DNA from: a virus
Lineage: Duplodnaviria; Caudoviricetes
DNA length: 64,000 nucleotides
Virus record (IMG/VR): IMGVR_UViG_3300038299_000353
Span: 1 to 64,000 of that record
Direction: 5' to 3' (one strand)
Under the pieces are notes generated by a model, which saw only the letters and a list, made by a program, of their open reading frames with translations, ran no database searches and was not told the origin of the DNA. Shown in pieces: positions 376-14,218 of this stretch. Within the stretch, counting starts at the first letter, position 1, and each line of letters begins with the position of its first letter. The translations under genes were made by a program, and so were the position numbers.

Positions 376-549
376 ATGACTACAAAAGAAAGAATGAAAG
401 CTTGGGAGGATCTTGGCTCACCAAAACCAGACTGGGAAACGTTTAAGAGGATGTTAGCATCCTGCAATAATAATCCGTTAGTAGTTCGGACATTGTGGCT
501 GAAAAAGAATTCAAAAAAAGGCTTGACAATCACTCCAGATAATGCATGA
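376..549 (+). CDS. hypothetical protein, 57 aa (not in ORF track)
   Basis: MTTKERMKAWEDLGSPKPDWETFKRML...; A-rich leader; fills the gap between genes. Confidence 0.55.
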   Translation: MTTKERMKAWEDLGSPKPDWETFKRMLASCNNNPLVVRTLWLKKNSKKGLTITPDNA

Positions 550-581
550 TTGAAGATACTTAAAACTAACTAACACACATT

Positions 582-812
582 ATGGAAAACAAAAACATTG
601 AAGACATCATTATCGAATACTGTGAAGGTTTTGAGCATCTAGAATTTAACTATAGCGATTTACCCGAGATGGCAGAGAAGATAAAAGAGGAACTGGCTAC
701 GGAAAATCATCGGCTACGCATTGCACTGCACGAAGCAATCAATCTCCCCAAAGGTATCGTCCCGCACGAAGCCGAGGAGTTTTACGATCAAGACTTCTAC
801 TCCACCACATAG
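582..812 (+). CDS. hypothetical early protein
   Basis: ORF track; ACACACATT-ATG leader; TTGACA near 524. Confidence 0.7.
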   Translation: MENKNIEDIIIEYCEGFEHLEFNYSDLPEMAEKIKEELATENHRLRIALHEAINLPKGIVPHEAEEFYDQDFYSTT

Positions 813-832
813 CCCAACAGGGCGCACACATT

Positions 833-1219
833 ATGAAACCACTAAGCGAAACATACAAAGAACTAGGCATTGCATTTACATTCCCTATTGAGATTAGAGA
901 TGCACACGGTAACTTGACTTACTACGAGAACAGCAAGGGCTACTGCTATAAGCGTGAGTGCGACGCCAATGATAACGAGACTTACCGCGAGGACAGCAAG
1001 GGCTACTGGTGTAAGCGTGAGTGCGACGCCAAGGGCAATAAGACTTACTACGAGGACAGCGGGGGCTACTGGTGTAAGTATGAGTATGATGCCGATGGTA
1101 AAGCGACTTACTTCGAGAGCAGCAAGGGCTACAAGCAAGGAACTCCTCGTTCAGCTAAGACCTGCGAAGGTAAGGTCATTGAAGTTGATGGCATTAAATA
1201 CAAACTAATAGCTCAGTAG
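833..1219 (+). CDS. phage protein with 21-aa YYEDSxGYWxKRExDAxGN repeats
   Basis: About 3.5 tandem repeats in the translation. Confidence 0.75.
   Translation: MKPLSETYKELGIAFTFPIEIRDAHGNLTYYENSKGYCYKRECDANDNETYREDSKGYWCKRECDAKGNKTYYEDSGGYWCKYEYDADGKATYFESSKGYKQGTPRSAKTCEGKVIEVDGIKYKLIAQ
916..1132 (+). repeat. 63-bp coding tandem repeat
   Basis: GACTTA unit starts at 916, 979, 1042, 1105. Confidence 0.9.
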
Positions 1220-1231
1220 GGCGCACACACT

Positions 1232-1420
1232 ATGAAAACAGAAGAACTTATACACGTCGTGACTGATATTTCTGAAGCTATTGTTGAACACAGGATGGGC
1301 GCACACATTGTGTGGGAAGACAGGGAGGATGGATCAGAAGGTTTCACAGAAGAAGCCCAAGATCTATTTTGCGAAGTCTACGACATCATAGAACCCATAA
1401 TACTTAAACACATCAAATAA
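1232..1420 (+). CDS. hypothetical protein
   Basis: ORF track; GGGCGCACACACT-ATG leader. Confidence 0.65.
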   Translation: MKTEELIHVVTDISEAIVEHRMGAHIVWEDREDGSEGFTEEAQDLFCEVYDIIEPIILKHIK

Positions 1421-1423
1421 ATC

Positions 1424-1639
1424 ATGGAACTACTAAAAAATTACTTCGTCGAGCTGATCATTACTATTGGCGAATACGAAACCCATACCAATTATGTATA
1501 TTCAGCAATCAACGAATCTGAAGCGATTAAACTTATAGAGGAGGATTGCAATGATGACAATGATGAGAGGCATACCGAACTAACAAGCATAGTGGAATTA
1601 TCCGACGATGATTTTGCCGTACTAAGTAGATTCATTTAA
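1424..1639 (+). CDS. hypothetical acidic protein
   Basis: ORF track; tight gene packing. Confidence 0.65.
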   Translation: MELLKNYFVELIITIGEYETHTNYVYSAINESEAIKLIEEDCNDDNDERHTELTSIVELSDDDFAVLSRFI

Positions 1640-1658
1640 ACCCAACCAAATAAATAGT

Positions 1659-1871
1659 ATGACTAAAACAGAAGCACATATTCGCGCCTCCAACTTTTAT
1701 CTATGCGAGGCTTTGCCCGAAGACTTCGATAAGCTAGATGAGCAAGAGGTCACAGACTTCATCCGAGATAACAGGTGGGAGCCGTTTGAAGAGTGGGAAC
1801 CGCACGGAATTTGGGAGTTGATTGAAGACCTTGCATCTGAATTTCTTTCGATTTCTAAGAAAAACAATTGA
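1659..1871 (+). CDS. hypothetical acidic protein
   Basis: ORF track. Confidence 0.65.
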   Translation: MTKTEAHIRASNFYLCEALPEDFDKLDEQEVTDFIRDNRWEPFEEWEPHGIWELIEDLASEFLSISKKNN

Positions 1872-1896
1872 CACCGTAGACACCTTGTTATACATT
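1868..1896 (+). promoter_or_regulatory. sigma70-like early promoter TTGACA-N17-TACATT with no ORF directly downstream
   Basis: Motif read directly. Confidence 0.65.
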
Positions 1897-1902
1897 TTTA
1901 TC

Positions 1903-1980
1903 TTTCTGTTGTTACTAGTTATGTTGTAACGTTATGTGGTAGTCGTCCCATCTTGTGGTTAGGGTGGGGCGACATTACCA
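1903..1980 (+). ncRNA. candidate GU-rich small RNA with a GTGGTT-loop hairpin
   Basis: Own promoter; 13-bp stem 1942-1973 with the same loop as the hairpin at 2759-2790. Confidence 0.4.
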
Positions 1981-2044
1981 AATAGTCCAATTTAACTCGA
2001 AATATTCACAAATAACACAATTTAGTGCGAAATAAACCCAAATA
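1980..2044 (+). repeat. phased AAATA array, 10-bp period
   Basis: AAATA at 1980, 2000, 2010, 2030, 2040; AATTT at 1989, 2019. Confidence 0.8.
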
Positions 2045-2046
2045 AT

Positions 2047-2127
2047 ATGATAGGTCAAGAAGAATTATGTATGTGGACTCTAGTTGCAGTGGCAATTGTG
2101 TTTTACTATACTATATATTGTAGATAA
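2047..2127 (+). CDS. 26-aa hydrophobic micro-ORF
   Basis: MIGQEELCMWTLVAVAIVFYYTIYCR. Confidence 0.35.
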   Translation: MIGQEELCMWTLVAVAIVFYYTIYCR

Positions 2128-2190
2128 TTTTTTAATTCTTTTTTTAAAAAAGGTATTGACATACCATCTTACTGAGACATACTGAGAAGC

Positions 2191-2538
2191 ATGAAAGTAA
2201 GAGTATATCGCAACCTAACCAAAAAATGCCTCTCTGTCCAAACCATGACAGACAAGGGCTGGAGAGTAACCAGACACGTTCAATCCATTTGCTTGAGCGC
2301 AGCGTCTTTTAAAGTATCTGAAGCAGGGCGACAAAGAGTGCTGTTGCAGAAGAGGAAGAATGTCCACGCCTGGGTAGAGGGATACGAAACGGATTCATTT
2401 GACGAGTCAACCGCTAAGGGTGTTAGCTACAACCCATATAAATCATCTCATTTCTTTTTGAAGGACGCGCCAAGCATCCCAATCTTCAAAACCCCAGCAG
2501 CCAGAATAAAAACTTCGGGAATCGAAATTAGTTCTTGA
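2191..2538 (+). CDS. conserved phage hypothetical protein, probably leaderless
   Basis: VYRNL...VSEAGRQRV...KNVHA pattern; TTGACA 35 nt upstream of ATG. Confidence 0.75.
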   Translation: MKVRVYRNLTKKCLSVQTMTDKGWRVTRHVQSICLSAASFKVSEAGRQRVLLQKRKNVHAWVEGYETDSFDESTAKGVSYNPYKSSHFFLKDAPSIPIFKTPAARIKTSGIEISS

Positions 2539-2568
2539 CATCGGCATCAACCTATGCATAATAACACT

Positions 2569-2718
2569 ATGACCACAAAAGAAATTAAAGTAAGTTCTAT
2601 TCCATCGCCAGATACTTGGAGAAAGAAAGATGAGCTACTCGCCCAAGGATTTAAACACGTAAACAATATAAGTGTTCGAGGCTCTGATCGATTCACTATG
2701 GTCTTCACTAAAGATTAA
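2569..2718 (+). CDS. hypothetical protein, 49 aa, leaderless
   Basis: TTGACA at 2535, CATAAT at 2557, ATG at 2569. Confidence 0.6.
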   Translation: MTTKEIKVSSIPSPDTWRKKDELLAQGFKHVNNISVRGSDRFTMVFTKD

Positions 2719-2813
2719 AACTTTTTTCTGTTAACGTGTGTGTGTACGCGTGTGTGTTGCCGTCTAGTCTTGTGGTTAGGACTAGGCGGCTTTATGCATG
2801 CCCATACTCCGTC

Positions 2814-2848
2814 AAATAACTTGAAATAACTCTAAATAATATCAAATA
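2814..2848 (+). repeat. phased AAATA array
   Basis: AAATA at 2814, 2824, 2834, 2844. Confidence 0.85.
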
Positions 2849-2971
2849 AAGGAACTAGTCAAGATATATTACTGTATTTGTTTTTTCTGATCTATTTGCA
2901 AGGTAATTATTTTTTTAAAGTTTTTTAAAAAATTGTTGACATATGCTTTTTACTATGCATTATTAGAGATC

Positions 2972-3205
2972 ATGACAAACATAACTATAACACATAAACA
3001 ATCATACGGAAACGACCACTTGTATATCACGGGTGATAAAGCAGACAATTTAAAGAGCTTGCTAGGAAAGAAGACTGTTAATCTATCTGATTTAAAAAAC
3101 CTTCTTAAGCTTGGGGTAAAGTTTGACATTGACGCAAGCAGTCAAACATGCTTAAACATTACTTCCGCAATTAATCACGGTGCAAGCGAAATTATTTTTC
3201 CTTAG
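2972..3205 (+). CDS. hypothetical protein (start revised to ATG 2972)
   Basis: The track's TTG start overlaps the TTGACA promoter at 2936. Confidence 0.65.
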   Translation: MTNITITHKQSYGNDHLYITGDKADNLKSLLGKKTVNLSDLKNLLKLGVKFDIDASSQTCLNITSAINHGASEIIFP

Positions 3206-3243
3206 CACTTGACAAACCACAAAAACCATACATTATAACGACC

Positions 3244-3930
3244 ATGAAACTACTAACTACAAACACAAAACTAGAAAAAGATACCACTTGGCACACGCTA
3301 GGAATTCAGCTTGCGCCTTTTACCCTTGGGGGCTATGGCAATGTTTGCACAAGTGCAAGCCAAGGTTGCAGCGACGCTTGCTTATTTACAGCGGGGCGCG
3401 GTGCAATGCCTAATGTTAAAGATGCGCGTATTGCTCGCACAAAAAAGTTTTTCACTGATAAGAGAGGCTTTATGACGCAACTTTTTGAAGAAGTTGCTAA
3501 AGCTGAAAAAAGCGCCAGTCGAAAAGGTTTGAAACTTGCCATACGTTTAAACGTTCTTTCCGATTTGCCTTGGGAAAAAATTAAACATGAAAGCAAGACA
3601 GTTTTTGAGGCTTTCCCTCAAATCACTTTTTACGATTATACAAAGCATTTTAAACGCGCAATGGCATTTGCCAAGGGTGAAATGCCTAGCAACTATCACT
3701 TGACTTTTTCGCGCAGCGAGTCAAACGAAAACTTGGCTAAAATGATTCTCGAAATCGGTGGAAACGTTGCTTGCGTATTCCGCAATGAGTTGCCAAAAAC
3801 TTGGCAAGGTAAAAAAGTTATTGACGGTGATAAGAGTGATTTGCGATTCTTAGACGATTCAAACGTCGTCGTAGGACTAGCGCAAAAGGGCATGGCTAAA
3901 AAAGACGCAACGGGCTTCGTAATAGGGTAA
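3244..3930 (+). CDS. Gp88-family protein (Cys-cluster, radical-SAM-like)
   Basis: NxKLxK...VCxxASxGCxxxCL, IRLNVLSD, FYDYTK, NYHLTFS, DGDxSDLRFLD. Confidence 0.75.
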   Translation: MKLLTTNTKLEKDTTWHTLGIQLAPFTLGGYGNVCTSASQGCSDACLFTAGRGAMPNVKDARIARTKKFFTDKRGFMTQLFEEVAKAEKSASRKGLKLAIRLNVLSDLPWEKIKHESKTVFEAFPQITFYDYTKHFKRAMAFAKGEMPSNYHLTFSRSESNENLAKMILEIGGNVACVFRNELPKTWQGKKVIDGDKSDLRFLDDSNVVVGLAQKGMAKKDATGFVIG

Positions 3931-3953
3931 GACTAGCGCAAATATAATCAAAT

Positions 3954-3998
3954 ATGATATTTATAATTATTTTGCTTCTATTGATAGTAATAAACTAA
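3954..3998 (+). CDS. 14-aa hydrophobic micro-peptide MIFIIILLLLIVIN
   Basis: Paralog of 10915-10962 with synonymous codon differences. Confidence 0.45.
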   Translation: MIFIIILLLLIVIN

Positions 3999-4006
3999 AG
4001 TAAAGG

Positions 4007-4073
4007 GGGGGTGAAAGGGTTTCGATTTAAATTGTTTAATTTAAAGACGGTGGTTCAACTCCACCCACCTCCA
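4007..4073 (+). ncRNA. minimal tmRNA tRNA-like domain (TLD only)
   Basis: GGGGGTG/CACCTCC-A acceptor stem with G3.U70; GGTTTCGA D-loop segment; 8-bp hairpin TTTAAATT-GTTT-AATTTAAA; GAC; T-arm GGTGG-TTCAACT-CCACC. Confidence 0.8.
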
Positions 4074-4176
4074 TTATTTTTTTAAAAAAAATTAAAAAAC
4101 GCATTGACAATCATTATACGTTAACCTATTGTCATGGCATAAGATTAATTCTGATCTTATAAACCACATAAACCAA

Positions 4177-4398
4177 ATGAAATTAATTGACCAAGTGAAT
4201 CAGATTCAAAAAGATGCCCGTCTCTCTCTTATTAAAAAGTTTGCACGTAGGAAGCGTAAGTTTAGCTATGCCGACGCAATGAAAAGCATTGACGACAATG
4301 CTCCAAGCATCGCAACGGAAAATGCTCCAAGCGATTTGACATTCAATCGCGAAAAAGATGAGTTGACAAAAGATATAATGGAAAGAATTTTCGGTTAA
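4177..4398 (+). CDS. hypothetical protein (start revised)
   Basis: Promoter at 4104, +1 hairpin, AC-rich leader before ATG 4177. Confidence 0.6.
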   Translation: MKLIDQVNQIQKDARLSLIKKFARRKRKFSYADAMKSIDDNAPSIATENAPSDLTFNREKDELTKDIMERIFG

Positions 4399-4466
4399 CA
4401 TATGGTTATGGGAAGCGGTGCTTTTAGGTTGCACTGCTTCCCTTTTCCTATATAACTTTTATTACT

Positions 4467-4712
4467 ATGAAAACACACACACTACCACAAGACATAAAAG
4501 CATTGGTTTTAGATTTGATTCTAAAGAAAACTGATTTTGGCTGGCAACTTTTAAACTATACTATTAGCGCTAATAGAGTTGACCTAGATTTTGGTCATTC
4601 AAACAGACCCGACATAAGTAATAGCTTTTGCTTTAAACTAGATGATTTAGAAGTATCCAGGGCAAATCTAAATATTTGGATTAACCAGGTCAAAGCACCG
4701 TATCTTAAATAG
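4467..4712 (+). CDS. hypothetical protein
   Basis: ORF track. Confidence 0.6.
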   Translation: MKTHTLPQDIKALVLDLILKKTDFGWQLLNYTISANRVDLDFGHSNRPDISNSFCFKLDDLEVSRANLNIWINQVKAPYLK

Positions 4713-4897
4713 ATTCAAATACAACTATGATACAGGCGAAATAATAAAATAGCTTGCAAGCTCTTGTAATTGCCAAGAGCTTTTAAACAGTCTAGACTAT
4801 TTGTCGAGAGAAAACTTAAAAGGTTTTGTTTGTTTTAGTGCGAAAAAAACTTTAAAAAAATGTTGACAAGCCCATCTGTGTAGTAAATTATATACAT

Positions 4898-5074
4898 ATG
4901 AAAAAAGCCACAGACCTAATACCAGAAGCAATTGACTTCTTGACTCAGATGAACTACAACCACAATCGCAAGATGGGTGTTGAATCTAAAAAGTTTGATT
5001 TACTATACGGAGAAAAGAAAGTCTCTGTTATGGAAGAAAACTTTAAAAGGGTATTGACAATCAAAGAAAGTTAA
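4898..5074 (+). CDS. hypothetical protein, 58 aa, leaderless
   Basis: TTGACA at 4863, ATG 35 nt later; MKKATDLIPEAIDFL... Confidence 0.6.
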   Translation: MKKATDLIPEAIDFLTQMNYNHNRKMGVESKKFDLLYGEKKVSVMEENFKRVLTIKES

Positions 5075-5121
5075 ACATACTACTTTAACAACCAGCTCAG
5101 TAGGGCAAAGAGGTAAACTTT

Positions 5122-5304
5122 ATGAGTAAAAACCACTACGATGAATACAGCTTTCATTTTCTCATTGAATGGGATGATGGGCAACAAGTGCAACAGTCAC
5201 TAGATGGAGCATATAAGCGCGATGTTCCTTGGTGTGATATACACGCGCAAAATGACGATGCCGACTCGATTACACTAGAATCCATAAGTAAAAATTATGC
5301 CTAA
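5122..5304 (+). CDS. hypothetical protein
   Basis: ORF track. Confidence 0.55.
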   Translation: MSKNHYDEYSFHFLIEWDDGQQVQQSLDGAYKRDVPWCDIHAQNDDADSITLESISKNYA

Positions 5305-5318
5305 GAAACGCACACATT

Positions 5319-5411
5319 ATGGAATCCCAAGATATTATCGAAACCGCATTTTTCGGTTTCATATTCTTCCTGCTAATTCTTAGCGTGAGTTGTGTTATCT
5401 TAAATAAATAA
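5319..5411 (+). CDS. 30-aa membrane peptide
   Basis: GCACACATT-ATG leader; MESQDIIETAFFGFIFFLLILSVSCVILNK. Confidence 0.55.
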   Translation: MESQDIIETAFFGFIFFLLILSVSCVILNK

Positions 5412-5456
5412 CAATAACACCTTGACAGCCAAACAAAAATAAACATACTGTAAGTT

Positions 5457-5594
5457 ATGAAATCAGCAATTTTAAACAAAGCTATTTGGGTAGAGATCAT
5501 CGAAGAGGAAGGCAACTTATGTCTTGTTCGCGATAAAGATGTAAACGAAGTTTGGGTTCATAAAAATCATCTTGACGCAATTGAAACAGACTAA
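5457..5594 (+). CDS. hypothetical protein, 45 aa, leaderless
   Basis: TTGACA at 5422; MKSAILNKAIWVEIIEEEG...; TAATG coupling to the next gene. Confidence 0.6.
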   Translation: MKSAILNKAIWVEIIEEEGNLCLVRDKDVNEVWVHKNHLDAIETD

Positions 5595-5791
5595 TGAAAA
5601 CTGTAATTATAAATAGCGTTAGAAAGAATGTTATTATAAATAATATTATTTTAATATCATTCTCAACTATTCTATGCAGTTTATTTTGCTTCGCAATATT
5701 ACAAATAGCAGAGGATAGAGAAGTTAAAAGAATTGATTTGCAAGAGAAAGCTTGGAAGCAAAAAGGTTACAATCTAAATAATACTAAATAA
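5594..5791 (+). CDS. small membrane protein
   Basis: One hydrophobic segment. Confidence 0.55.
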   Translation: MKTVIINSVRKNVIINNIILISFSTILCSLFCFAILQIAEDREVKRIDLQEKAWKQKGYNLNNTK

Positions 5792-5980
5792 GACAAATAG
5801 ATGCAGATAAGTATAAACGTTCTACTAAACCAATTCATTGTAACTGAAAATGGCAAAAAGACTATTTTAACATTAGATGAGGTGGCAAATTATTTTAAAA
5901 AAAAAGGTTGACATGAGTTGTGCGCCATAGGATACTACTCGCTCAGTAGTAACTTATTAACCACATAACCAAAAAAACAC

Positions 5981-6223
5981 ATGACACAAGATACAGTAAA
6001 CGAAATTAAAGAACTCGCTCTCGCCAATTACGATGAGGGTGGTCACTGGGTAGTTGAATGCTTTTCCGATCAAGATATACTAGAGCATTTTAATTCCGTT
6101 AAAGACGCTAGAGAGTATTGGCTTCTTAAGCAGGAAAATGAAGATGAGAAACAAGCCGCTCATGAATTTTATAACGACGGTAAATTTTGGGCTGATTTTT
6201 ATAATGTAAAGACAAATGTGTAA
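5981..6223 (+). CDS. hypothetical protein
   Basis: ORF track; promoter near 5908; AC-rich leader. Confidence 0.7.
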   Translation: MTQDTVNEIKELALANYDEGGHWVVECFSDQDILEHFNSVKDAREYWLLKQENEDEKQAAHEFYNDGKFWADFYNVKTNV

Positions 6224-6237
6224 GTAATATGGTTTAA

Positions 6238-6266
6238 GCCGTCACTCGAAAGGGTGGCGGTTTTTT
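6238..6266 (+). terminator. intrinsic terminator
   Basis: GCCGTCACTC-GAAA-GGGTGGCGG then T-tract; same apex as the 6968 terminator. Confidence 0.8.
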
Positions 6267-6522
6267 CCTGCCCAAATACGACAAATAGATCGAAATAGAA
6301 TAGATAGCCCAAATAGTCTGAAATAAAGCAAATAAAACTATCCTGTCTATCCGTCAACATAATCCCTTTATTCATACCCGTGGAAATCGACGGGATTAGG
6401 TAGAATTTAAATTATTTGATTTAGAATCTTTTTTATTTTTTTTTCTGCATTTGCTTGACTCAAGCATTTCGATAGTCATTCTATACGTTATAGCAATTCT
6501 GCTATATTAAAACTAAGTCATT

Positions 6523-6957
6523 ATGAATAAACTAAATGCATTACAAACACTTCGCAAAGGCACATTTGCCATTGCTAGAATCGTCTCTAAAAAGAAGCCT
6601 TTAAAAGCTTTCGCTCAGCACGATATAACTAAAGTCATCCTTTGCACTGTTCGCACTGGCATTGAGTATCGTAACCTATCTGAAGTAAAAGACAATGGAA
6701 TCAAACCTAAGAACCTTCCTTGGGGCGAATGGGAATCCTATCCCTACGCTATTACTCACAAAGGCAATCGCTATTTGAGACTCTACTTGGGACAGTCTCT
6801 TAAAGTGTTTTATCTAGTTGACGGCGTAAAGGTTTCTTCCAGCCAAGCCAAGATCATGCTTCCAAGATCAAGCGGATCTTCAAAGCCGCTTTGCATAACT
6901 GTTAAAGAGGCTGGTTTAGTTAGTCTCAAACAGAAGGGTAAAGAGTTAATTAAGTAA
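6523..6957 (+). CDS. basic hypothetical protein, paralog of 11106-11552
   Basis: Shared LPWGEWExYPYxITHKGNRYLRLYLGQ. Confidence 0.85.
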   Translation: MNKLNALQTLRKGTFAIARIVSKKKPLKAFAQHDITKVILCTVRTGIEYRNLSEVKDNGIKPKNLPWGEWESYPYAITHKGNRYLRLYLGQSLKVFYLVDGVKVSSSQAKIMLPRSSGSSKPLCITVKEAGLVSLKQKGKELIK

Positions 6958-6967
6958 TACAATTTAC

Positions 6968-6997
6968 ATCGCTACTCGAAAGGGTAGCGATTTTTTT
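6968..6997 (+). terminator. intrinsic terminator
   Basis: ATCGCTACTC-GAAA-GGGTAGCGAT plus T-tract. Confidence 0.85.
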
Positions 6998-7101
6998 GTG
7001 TCCAAATAAAATAAATAGATCCAAATAACGGGAATCCTCACAAATAATGCAAATAATATATACGGGCATAGGCATCCAGCTATGTGCATCTGATTTTACT
7101 G

Positions 7102-7151
7102 CTATTAGATAATCTTATTTAGAATCATTCTAAAGTGAATGGCTATCAGGT
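7102..7151 (+). promoter_or_regulatory. conserved operator block with palindrome TTTAGAATcATTCTAAA (Fur-box-like), copy 1
   Basis: Also at 9002-9060 and 10292-10350. Confidence 0.65.
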
Positions 7152-7273
7152 AGCTCAAATTATTTTATCTATTTTAAAACAATTAATTTGACACAAGGTA
7201 AACTGATCTATCTATTGGGCAATGTAGCTATCGTATAGTTACCTTAGATTAAACCATCTAAACCATAAACATA

Positions 7274-8077
7274 ATGAAAACAGTAAATGCAAACGAAGCC
7301 CTCGCCCTCGATATCACTGAAACTGCTTTGAACGTAGAGTTTAAAGAGATTCGTATTAATGGCGAGTATTCGGCGACAGTAGGCAATGATCGCTCGATCC
7401 CAACATTTGACAAATTGCTTGCGCCTTTTGTCGATCTCTCAAACGCCATGCAAAGCGAATTCAATCCGTCGATTAAACTAATGCGTTCAAGTCATGGCGC
7501 TGACGGCACGATCTACTCGATCTCGATGCCTTACAAAATGATTAAGCTAGGCGAGCGCGATACAGAATGCCGCATCGTGCGTCATGGCTCTCTAAACTCG
7601 TCTTGCTCTGATCGCTTTGGTTTGCAAATGCTAGTTCAGATTTGCTCTAATGGCATGATGGGCTGGAAGTCTGAAGGTAATGCCGTCACACGCTTCACAG
7701 CGAACTGGCAAGGCATCTCAAAAGGGCGCATCGATCTTGCGCTTGGCTCTTTCGATTCGATGCAAGCGCATTACATGGAATTGGCTAATGATCTCAAAGC
7801 AATCACTTTGACTAGCGAGGGCGTTACTGATCGCTTAAACCGTATAGTTAAAGGCGAGTCGAAACGTGCTGAGAATATTCGCGAAGAGATTCGCGAGCTA
7901 TTCGTTTCGGGCAAAGGCAATCGCGGGCAAAACTCATGGGATTTGTTTAACGCTGTTACCGAATACGAGAATCACTACAAGGTGTATCGCAACACAAATG
8001 GCGTTACAAGCGACGAGAATCGCGCTAAGGGCGTTTTAGCCCTCGATACGGATAAGCTAGCAAGCTTGGTAGCGTAA
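7274..8077 (+). CDS. DUF932-family protein, copy 1
   Basis: VQICSNGM and WDLFNAVTEYENH motifs. Confidence 0.75.
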   Translation: MKTVNANEALALDITETALNVEFKEIRINGEYSATVGNDRSIPTFDKLLAPFVDLSNAMQSEFNPSIKLMRSSHGADGTIYSISMPYKMIKLGERDTECRIVRHGSLNSSCSDRFGLQMLVQICSNGMMGWKSEGNAVTRFTANWQGISKGRIDLALGSFDSMQAHYMELANDLKAITLTSEGVTDRLNRIVKGESKRAENIREEIRELFVSGKGNRGQNSWDLFNAVTEYENHYKVYRNTNGVTSDENRAKGVLALDTDKLASLVA

Positions 8078-8095
8078 GCGATTCTAAGCCCTCTC

Positions 8096-8124
8096 AAGCC
8101 CTCTCAAATAGAGAGGGCTTTTTT
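8096..8124 (+). terminator. intrinsic terminator
   Basis: AAGCCCTCTC-AAATA-GAGAGGGCTT plus T-tract. Confidence 0.85.
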
Positions 8125-8412
8125 GTGCGTAATAACTAGATAGATCTAAATAACTATAATAGCCCAAAATAAACCAAATAAAGTAATAGCCCAAAATAAA
8201 CAGGATAGAGCGAAATAAACCAAATAAAGGGTAGTGATTAGATAGGGTAGATCATTGCACCATGTGATTAAAAGGATTAATGTAAAACCGATTTACTATT
8301 AAAAAATCTTATACCGAATAAGATTGACACTGTTTCGAAATCGACTGAAAATGCAGGCTGTTCTTTTAACCCGCGCACGATGCGCACACATAAACCACAC
8401 ACACATATACAC

Positions 8413-14045: not shown

Positions 14046-14121
14046 TGGTGGACCCACTGGGACTTGAACCCAGACTCAACGGATTATGAATCCGCTGCTT
14101 TAACCATTAAGCTATGCGTCC
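14046..14121 (-). tRNA. tRNA with CAT anticodon (Ile2 or elongator Met)
   Basis: Cloverleaf; loop TTCATAA; encoded CCA; one G-G mismatch in the acceptor stem. Confidence 0.9.
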
Positions 14122-14141
14122 TATTTTGAATGTTTTTAAAT

Positions 14142-14218
14142 TGGTACTCCGAGCAGGACTTGAACCTGCGACCCACGGTTTAGAAAACCGTTGCTCTATC
14201 CAGCTGAGCTATCGGAGC
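14142..14218 (-). tRNA. tRNA-Arg(TCT)
   Basis: Cloverleaf; ACGGT-TTTCTAA-ACCGT arm; encoded CCA. Confidence 0.93.

Follow-up and report, generated by a model that had tools for sequence, protein, structure and literature searches.

The intergenic element at positions 4007–4073 of the window (the whole stretch of 64,000 nucleotides analysed here, positions 1 to 64,000 of the IMG/VR virus record IMGVR_UViG_3300038299_000353) is a real, well-formed phage transfer-messenger RNA (tmRNA) gene that consists of the tRNA-like domain (TLD) only, and it is probably functional. The mRNA-like domain, with its resume codon, tag frame and stop codon, is absent, and just 20 nt separate the two halves of the TLD. 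The element belongs to a TLD-only class that spans at least 33 sequence clusters from phages of 30–160 kb, including abundant marine lineages, where "marine" refers to the metagenome labels of related records and runs. The source record is an IMG/VR contig of 83,210 bases, with no end repeats and an estimated completeness of 58%.

The original prediction, made from the letters of this DNA, described a tmRNA-type 5' end and 3' end joined only by a hairpin, with a G3.U70 pair, no tag open reading frame (ORF) and no encoded CCA. The sequence reads exactly so: the insert is limited to the 20 nt mentioned above, and A4073 is followed by TTA, so that CCA is not encoded. A search of the whole window with the Rfam tmRNA model RF00023 matched positions 4007–4076 end to end (model positions 1–374), with a score of 57.2 bits (gathering score 47) and an E value of 8.7e-20. 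In this alignment all three helices are intact and 308 interior model positions are reduced to 4 nt in the element, with PK1–PK4 and helix 5 absent. The hairpin occupies the start of tmRNA helix 2a, in place of the pseudoknots and the tag frame. The element is the sole RF00023 match of this kind in the virus record, and tmRNA remained its best match within the Rfam clan. Its centroid fold consists of exactly three helices (acceptor, hairpin and T arm), with a minimum free energy of −20.8 kcal/mol (z −2.19; 6 of 200 shuffles folded equally well or better). The AlaRS identity set is complete (7-bp acceptor stem, G4009.T4070 and A4073), and the predicted parts of the SmpB-binding elbow, namely the T arm, the D-loop analogue and the GAC linker, are all there. 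A tRNA (RF00005) was considered and rejected, as there is no anticodon arm or D stem, the hairpin loop has only 4 nt and ARAGORN made no call. Run on the window, ARAGORN reported only tRNA-Met and tRNA-Arg; the expectation that standard finders may miss the element therefore held for this program, but Infernal with Rfam finds it.

Relatives were sought with a pattern in which a short gap of variable length separates motifs conserved in the TLD; it retrieved 8 viral contigs at first and 42 once relaxed. The pattern fixes GGGG, GA, GG, TTCGA, GAC, GTTC, A and TC, so conservation at these positions is by construction, and the resulting census is a lower bound: the published element of Mycobacterium phage DS6A, discussed below, lies outside the pattern. 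The same build was recognised in 42 viral-contig loci, in 27 of 28 loci from metagenome contigs (scanned with gaps of 8–24 nt only) and in 5 of 7 genome-contig loci, the latter from one representative of each of 185,579 prokaryotic species. Two of the seven genome loci were false (one full tmRNA and one non-pairing sequence), and all five true ones lie in metagenome-assembled genomes (MAGs). Six loci were left out before the counts: the false genome hits L052 and L053 and the metagenome locus L068 (3' strand unpaired in all three), L003 and L031 (truncated where their contigs end) and L065 (identical to the window). L046 and L047, which have 60–62-nt inserts, were excluded from the model alignment. 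The 52 distinct sequences fell into 33 single-linkage clusters at 80% identity, in which the window element groups only with L004, a syntenic relative that is 94% identical over the region. Four metagenome loci carry the window's own TLD sequence or differ from it by one loop base.

The distribution of insert lengths was informative. With identical flanks, the viral contigs yielded 42 loci with inserts of 8–38 nt, two at 39–69 nt and none at 70–100 nt, whereas at least 120 loci had inserts of 290–320 nt, the size expected of a full tmRNA. This gap indicates that the short form is a discrete class and not the end of a decay series. Within the class, 29 of the 37 distinct sequences retained from the viral and genome scans, after removal of the two false hits and the two contig-end copies, have inserts of 27–35 nt, mostly folded as a two-tier hairpin. 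A plain hairpin with a 12–24-nt insert is found in the window, L004, L005, L002/L009, L033 and many metagenome members; the window element lacks the two-tier hairpin and has the plain 8-bp form.

The pairing of the three helices was conserved across these sequences. Both G3.U70 and the discriminator A were present in all 37; the T stem was paired in 185 of 185 cells, and the acceptor stem had seven of seven pairs in 34 sequences; none of these 3' features is specified by the pattern. The connector helix, placed for this count by its conserved flanks only, paired at 212 of 222 positions, whereas strands taken from different sequences paired at a mean of 2.73 of 6 positions and none of 10,000 permutations reached 212/222; this flank-anchored count is independent of any model. 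We also built a covariance model, R1, from the 52 distinct sequences, including those of DS6A and the window, and realigned them with it. In the R1 alignment, 95.1% of cells were paired, versus 65.3% in shuffles and 41–57% with the partners slid, values to be read with two caveats: the alignment has been fitted to R1, and the kinship of the sequences inflates shuffle tests. Double changes were observed at all seven connector hairpin pairs and at four of the five T-stem pairs, and a G.U pair occupied 3:70 in 52 of 52 sequences. RNAalifold, on its own, gave the same helices. TLD-only homologues with covarying stems, which the original prediction had proposed to look for, were thus recovered in phage contigs by the pattern scan, and their pairing argues for selection on the element and against decay.

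These results bear directly on two readings in which the element would have no function of its own. One holds it to be a remnant with no function, left when a phage tmRNA lost its interior by deletion and now drifting, as would agree with the weak A/U-only hairpin and the missing CCA. We consider this very unlikely, given that insert sizes are discrete, with none at 70–100 nt, that every hairpin pair shows compensatory changes, that the helices and G3.U70 are intact in all 33 clusters and that the TLD is unchanged but for one loop base in five relatives of 94–96% identity. The original prediction had itself named a decaying deletion as an outcome that would speak against function, and the discreteness of the class and the covariation of its stems do not agree with such a decay. 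The other holds the element to be an integration leftover, an attP or other attachment-site fragment of a host ssrA gene. Integration into ssrA with a carried 3' end is common in temperate elements (general knowledge; mentioned in PMC9004378), but here the TLD retains both of its strands, 5' and 3', which a designed-looking hairpin connects, a search of the 83 kb for a tyrosine integrase or resolvase gene (PF00589 and PF00239) gave no match, and an integrase is present in only 3 of the 42 related viral records (one of the eight that are at least 90% complete). The attachment-site reading, also raised in the original prediction, is effectively refuted, and we give it next to no weight.

Table 1. 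Features of the TLD-only tmRNA gene and of its immediate surroundings (window coordinates)
Feature	Position	Strand	Evidence
Whole TLD-only (coding sequence-less) tmRNA gene, 67 nt to the discriminator	4007..4073	+	RF00023, 57.2 bits; R1, 75.2 bits
Acceptor stem, 5' strand GGGGGTG, G3 = 4009	4007..4013	+	7/7 pairs with 4066–4072
D-loop analogue AAAGGGTTTCGA, with the tmRNA GG and UUCGA motifs	4014..4025	+	Aligned to conserved consensus positions of RF00023
8-bp A/U hairpin TTTAAATT-GTTT-AATTTAAA	4026..4045	+	Sequence and fold; equivalent stem covaries at 7/7 pairs
GAC linker from helix 2a to the T arm, conserved in tmRNA	4046..4048	+	RF00023 alignment
T arm GGTGG / TTCAACT / CCACC	4049..4065	+	Sequence, RF00023 alignment and fold
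Acceptor stem, 3' strand CACCTCC, U70 = 4070, forming G3.U70	4066..4072	+	Pairing with 4007–4013
Discriminator A	4073	+	Sequence
3' trailer TTA, then T7 and A8; possible termination or processing site	4074..4091	+	Sequence; putative terminator role
Promoter-like site TTGACA-16-CATTAT, nearest upstream on the same strand	3209..3236	+	Consensus match only
Upstream gene, Pfam GP88 (PF17338)	3244..3930	+	1.4e-47
Next promoter-like site TTGACA-17-TATTGT, putative start of the following unit	4104..4132	+	Consensus match

The element had been presented as unprecedented, and in this respect the original prediction has to be corrected. PMC4131195 (Hudson, Lau and Williams 2014) lists "Mycobacterium phage DS6A (TLD only)" and, with reference to Mao et al. 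[quoted passage not shown] Titration of SmpB is proposed for the DS6A element in both papers, and the suggestion in the original prediction that such an RNA could sequester SmpB and block trans-translation therefore has a published precedent and is not new. Only these two papers were found to describe phage TLD-only RNAs in our full-text searches, although supplements, such as Table S2 of PMC11915505, may list more. The 2025 tmRNA database described in PMC11915505 contains nine "standard, no CDS" (coding sequence) entries among 97,179, and 79 bacteriophage sequences; the underlying survey searched RefSeq viruses with a pipeline that rejects "truncations".

We located the DS6A element at JN698994 28478–28560, between gp33 and gp34 (tmRNA Website tmID 11587), where it is not annotated as a gene. 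It scored 43.2 bits with RF00023, below the cut-off, and 57.4 bits with R1, compared with 75.2 bits for the window element. In the model alignment the two sequences have 41% identity, and they share a complete phage-encoded TLD with G3.U70 and A73, the absence of a tag frame and pseudoknots, a short hairpin interior and a CCA that is not encoded (the DS6A tail is CTA). They differ in that DS6A has a two-tier hairpin, in which helix 2a is joined by another short helix within some 35 nt of insert, is G+C-rich and has a divergent D-loop region, whereas the window element comes from an uncultured marine phage and has the plain 8-bp A/U hairpin. As the DS6A kind is already in print, the window element adds a more minimal, CCA-less form and not a new kind.

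Some laboratory constructs have almost the same design. The TLD co-crystallised with SmpB (PMC3929946) consists of 25 nt, UUCG and 34 nt (Thermus thermophilus; PDB 2CZJ), and the window element of 27, 4 and 36 nt; in both, the 5' strand is followed by a helix-2a stub with a tetraloop and then by the 3' strand. The engineered molecules carry CCA, whereas the window element is natural and a candidate SmpB binder. A TLD fragment of tmRNA has also been placed on the ribosome together with SmpB and EF-Tu (PDB 4V8Q; PMC8012679), and a TLD with SmpB has been found to direct template-free synthesis of polyalanine in vitro (PMC3929946). Engineered analogues of the element are alanylated, bind SmpB and EF-Tu and enter stalled ribosomes (PMC3929946). 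Organellar tmRNAs without a coding sequence, from jakobid and other mitochondria and from the approximately 65-bp genes of Mallomonadaceae plastids, have likewise lost the mRNA part and kept the tRNA-like part, and are conserved together with SmpB (PMC11915505). However, they are the sole tmRNA of their cell or organelle, and most of the mitochondrial ones are permuted, whereas the window element is an extra copy that a virus brings into a cell presumably already equipped with a full tmRNA. Phage tmRNAs of full length, such as the 403-nt RNA of PegLeg and the two-piece RNA of Melnitz, belong to the same phage-borne ssrA family and are often located near tRNA genes (PMC9004378), but they keep the tag frame and pseudoknots and can complete trans-translation, which the window element cannot. 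AcrIIIA1, a binder of t(m)RNA fragments (PMC11662646), was set aside as unrelated.

Judged by its sequence, the element retains all the parts needed for recognition by AlaRS, SmpB and EF-Tu and for entry into the A site, and none of those needed for resuming or terminating translation. By analogy with the published RNAs of this type, which are reported to bind SmpB, to enter ribosomes and to inhibit tmRNA in E. coli, we give about even credence to a stand-alone TLD-only tmRNA gene whose RNA competes with the host tmRNA and blocks or diverts trans-translation. Competition for SmpB, AlaRS, EF-Tu and stalled ribosomes would be the most likely mechanism. The RNA would be made in an early region with multiple promoters, probably on a transcript starting at about position 3209, and would be excised in the manner of a tRNA: RNase P would cleave at G4007, the 3' extension would be trimmed off after A4073, and the host would add CCA. 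The host AlaRS would recognise it through G3.U70 and A73, and the host SmpB and EF-Tu would be bound through the D-loop analogue, the helix-2a stub and the T arm. Devoid of resume codon, tag frame and stop codon, the RNA would then compete with the host tmRNA for SmpB and for access to non-stop ribosomes whose A site is empty, and host tagging and trans-translation would be blocked or diverted during infection, with a putative benefit to the phage. SmpB was found neither in the phage's own record nor in any of the 42 viral records that carry relatives of the element, which points to dependence on host SmpB; a search of the 83 kb for other helper genes detected no RF-1/ArfB-like protein, Pth or CCA-adding enzyme, and no full tmRNA is encoded there.

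Several observations weigh against this interpretation. The advantage to a phage of blocking ribosome rescue is not evident, and PMC4131195 and PMC11915505 differ slightly in their accounts of the key inhibition experiment of Mao et al. 2009. The window element ends in TTA, whereas both tRNAs of the phage encode CCA; its charging would therefore rely on 3' processing and CCA addition by the host, and may not occur. The hairpin consists only of A/U pairs and is weak when folded alone (−1.2 kcal/mol). No promoter-like site lies directly upstream of the element, in the 76 bases from 3931 to 4006. The best public RNA runs were marine metatranscriptome contigs with small word shares (0.05–0.11), which we compared with positions 3000–5000; they cover relatives of the flanking genes at 3154–3854 and 4199–4577 and not 3855–4198, a result that is neutral on expression, since contig coverage cannot demonstrate absence. 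Among the five closest relatives, the TLD differs at 6 of 335 positions and the intergenic DNA on its flanks at 46 of 904, but these relatives are about 94–96% identical overall and are not independent, so that this local conservation is weak evidence. Finally, the remaining 42% or so of the genome could encode an SmpB of the phage's own or a complete tmRNA.

It is also possible, although rather unlikely in our view, that the RNA helps the ribosomes of the infected cell. An alanylated TLD, together with host SmpB, might free or mark stalled ribosomes without a tag, adding at least one untemplated alanine, with release left to other host factors; ribosomes would thereby be kept available while host mRNAs are destroyed, or a minimal Ala-Ala degron would be made. 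Two-residue Ala-Ala tags are reported for some bacteria (PMC11915505). The strict conservation of G3.U70 (52/52) and of A73 (37/37), and the encoding of CCA in 14 of the 37 sequences, argue that charging matters. An RNA acting purely as an SmpB sponge would not have to be charged, and inhibition is described as occurring "whether or not chargeable" (PMC4131195). The invariance of G3.U70 and the frequency of encoded CCA thus suggest that charging matters in nature and keep tag-less rescue or alanine tailing alive as explanations; the template-free synthesis of polyalanine in vitro (PMC3929946) points the same way, as do the tag-less mitochondrial tmRNAs that are conserved with SmpB and that the authors of PMC11915505 think still useful on incomplete mRNAs. 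Tag-less rescue, which the original prediction had also raised, is therefore possible. However, the RNA contains no stop codon, so release would need another factor, and no gene for an RF-1/ArfB-like protein or Pth is present in the 83 kb; CCA is not encoded in the window copy, nor in any of the six copies of its lineage; and, in the literature cited here, the sole in vivo result reported for an RNA of this kind is inhibition.

A tRNA-shaped element might, instead, act outside trans-translation, as a decoy or bait for host defence systems that read or cut tmRNA or acceptor arms, as a processing signal, or as a terminator and 3'-end protector of the upstream transcript. We regard such roles as improbable. 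The element would lie at the end of a putative transcription unit and is followed by the run of seven T residues and the next promoter-like site (Table 1), and several relatives lie within phage tRNA arrays; CoCoNuT restriction systems, moreover, have SmpB-like domains that are predicted to bind tmRNA (PMC11090510). However, the TTA tail and T run, with varying lengths, are kept in L004, L065, L067, L069 and L082, and the T run is restricted to the window's lineage and missing from the other members of the class, a terminator scan did not call the 3' trailer at 4074–4091, and neither a processing signal nor a terminator would require G3.U70 and A73 to be invariant or the D-loop to carry motifs specific to tmRNA. 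Nor does any defence gene or conserved protein neighbour go with the class: in an all-against-all BLASTP comparison of the ORFs within 3 kb of each element, neighbours were shared within lineages only. The proposal in the original prediction that the element is a decoy against tRNA-cleaving defences thus found no support.

A broader proposal may also be entertained, which we put forward with somewhat less than even confidence: TLD-only tmRNAs may be a widespread, independently maintained phage device against host trans-translation, either shutting it down or converting it to template-free alanine tailing. Ribosome rescue and tagging would then be an obstacle to the growth of phages in general, one that they have to neutralise, and the 67-nt form of the window would be near the smallest RNA able to do so. 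What the present analysis adds is that the TLD-only form, previously represented by a single phage and the nine "standard, no CDS" entries of the database (PMC11915505, as cited above), recurs in dozens of unrelated, uncultured and largely marine phages, where it appears to be under structural selection. A footnote in the literature thereby becomes a testable question, namely whether interference with the ribosome rescue of the host is routine among phages and whether its aim is to block tagging or to use the untemplated addition of alanine. A natural 67-nt RNA with a design near-identical to that of the crystallography constructs would also be a convenient reagent.

There are consequences for annotation. 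RF00023 scored the element above its cut-off in 40 of the 42 viral records; all the above-cut-off matches in these records were 66–86 nt long, and none was a full-length tmRNA. Since pipelines based on Rfam label these elements "tmRNA" and those based on ARAGORN miss them, counts of phage tmRNAs mix two functionally different things. In locus L037, ARAGORN called a 349-nt "tmRNA" at 1042–1390 with an implausible tag, which takes as its own 3' end that of the TLD-only element (1311–1390) and is likely to be an annotation artefact typical of this class. BLASTN of the element and the surrounding 3 kb against 50,697 cultured-phage records gave no match, and with two other members of the class only T-arm-sized matches were obtained; PegLeg and its kin, candidates from these searches, turned out to have full 403-nt tmRNAs and were rejected. 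BLASTN is too blunt for RNAs of this type.

The element lies between the ORFs at 3244–3930 and 4129/4178–4398, in a region rich in small plus-strand ORFs that occupies the first 8.4 kb of the window. Thirteen of the 15 plus-strand TTGACA-N16/17-NANNNT sites of the record fall in this region (523–8352), and in most of them an ATG follows the second hexamer at a distance of just 6–9 nt, suggesting early transcripts that are nearly leaderless. On the basis of these promoter-like sites, early expression of the element is plausible. In the simplest reading, the site at 3209 would drive the gene for the GP88 protein and, by read-through, the TLD, so that both may be carried on one transcript.

The GP88 homologue is syntenic with the TLD in L004 and is located about 1.3 kb upstream of it in L008; the window and these two loci are the only ones in which it recurs near the element. 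A search at E ≤ 0.001 yielded 3,299 relatives of the GP88 protein of the window; some records name homologues "Gp37/Gp68-like", and residues C35, C42 and C46 are invariant in an alignment of 29 sequences. The AlphaFold model is confident, with a pLDDT (predicted local distance difference test) of 89.7, and Foldseek returned no match in the PDB at E ≤ 0.001. The best match for GP88 was to Pelagibacter phage HTVC115P (48.6%), in which R1 had no match; the terminase large subunit (TerL) had only matches below 28% identity among cultured phages, and the phage of locus L005 has no close cultured relative. Elsewhere in the window, tRNA-Met(CAT) and tRNA-Arg(TCT) are arranged in tandem on the minus strand (14046–14218), and in both the encoded CCA is followed by ATTTAAAAA.

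Other members of the class differ in their setting. In six loci (L014, L051, L054, L035, L046 and L047), the TLD-only gene is found within an array of 7–12 phage tRNA genes, a placement that fits joint expression and processing with the tRNAs. Two of these, L046 (889–997) and L047 (8937–9043), are the viral TLDs with 60–62-nt inserts, which are branched and have no evident tag frame; their size is between that of the short class and that of full tmRNAs. In one lineage (L017, L018, L020, L021, L024, L031, L041 and L042), an upstream ORF extends 13 nt into the TLD-only 5' end. The short form is the only one seen in two MAGs, one of Saccharibacteria (G043) and one of Achromobacter (G045), whereas another Saccharibacteria MAG contains both a full tmRNA (G044:C75:1308-1667; 118.7 bits) and a TLD-only locus, L055 (G044:C62:368-449; 61.3 bits). 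The acceptor stem, T stem and D-loop all differ between these two genes, indicating that the short form is not a fresh copy of the ssrA gene of that MAG.

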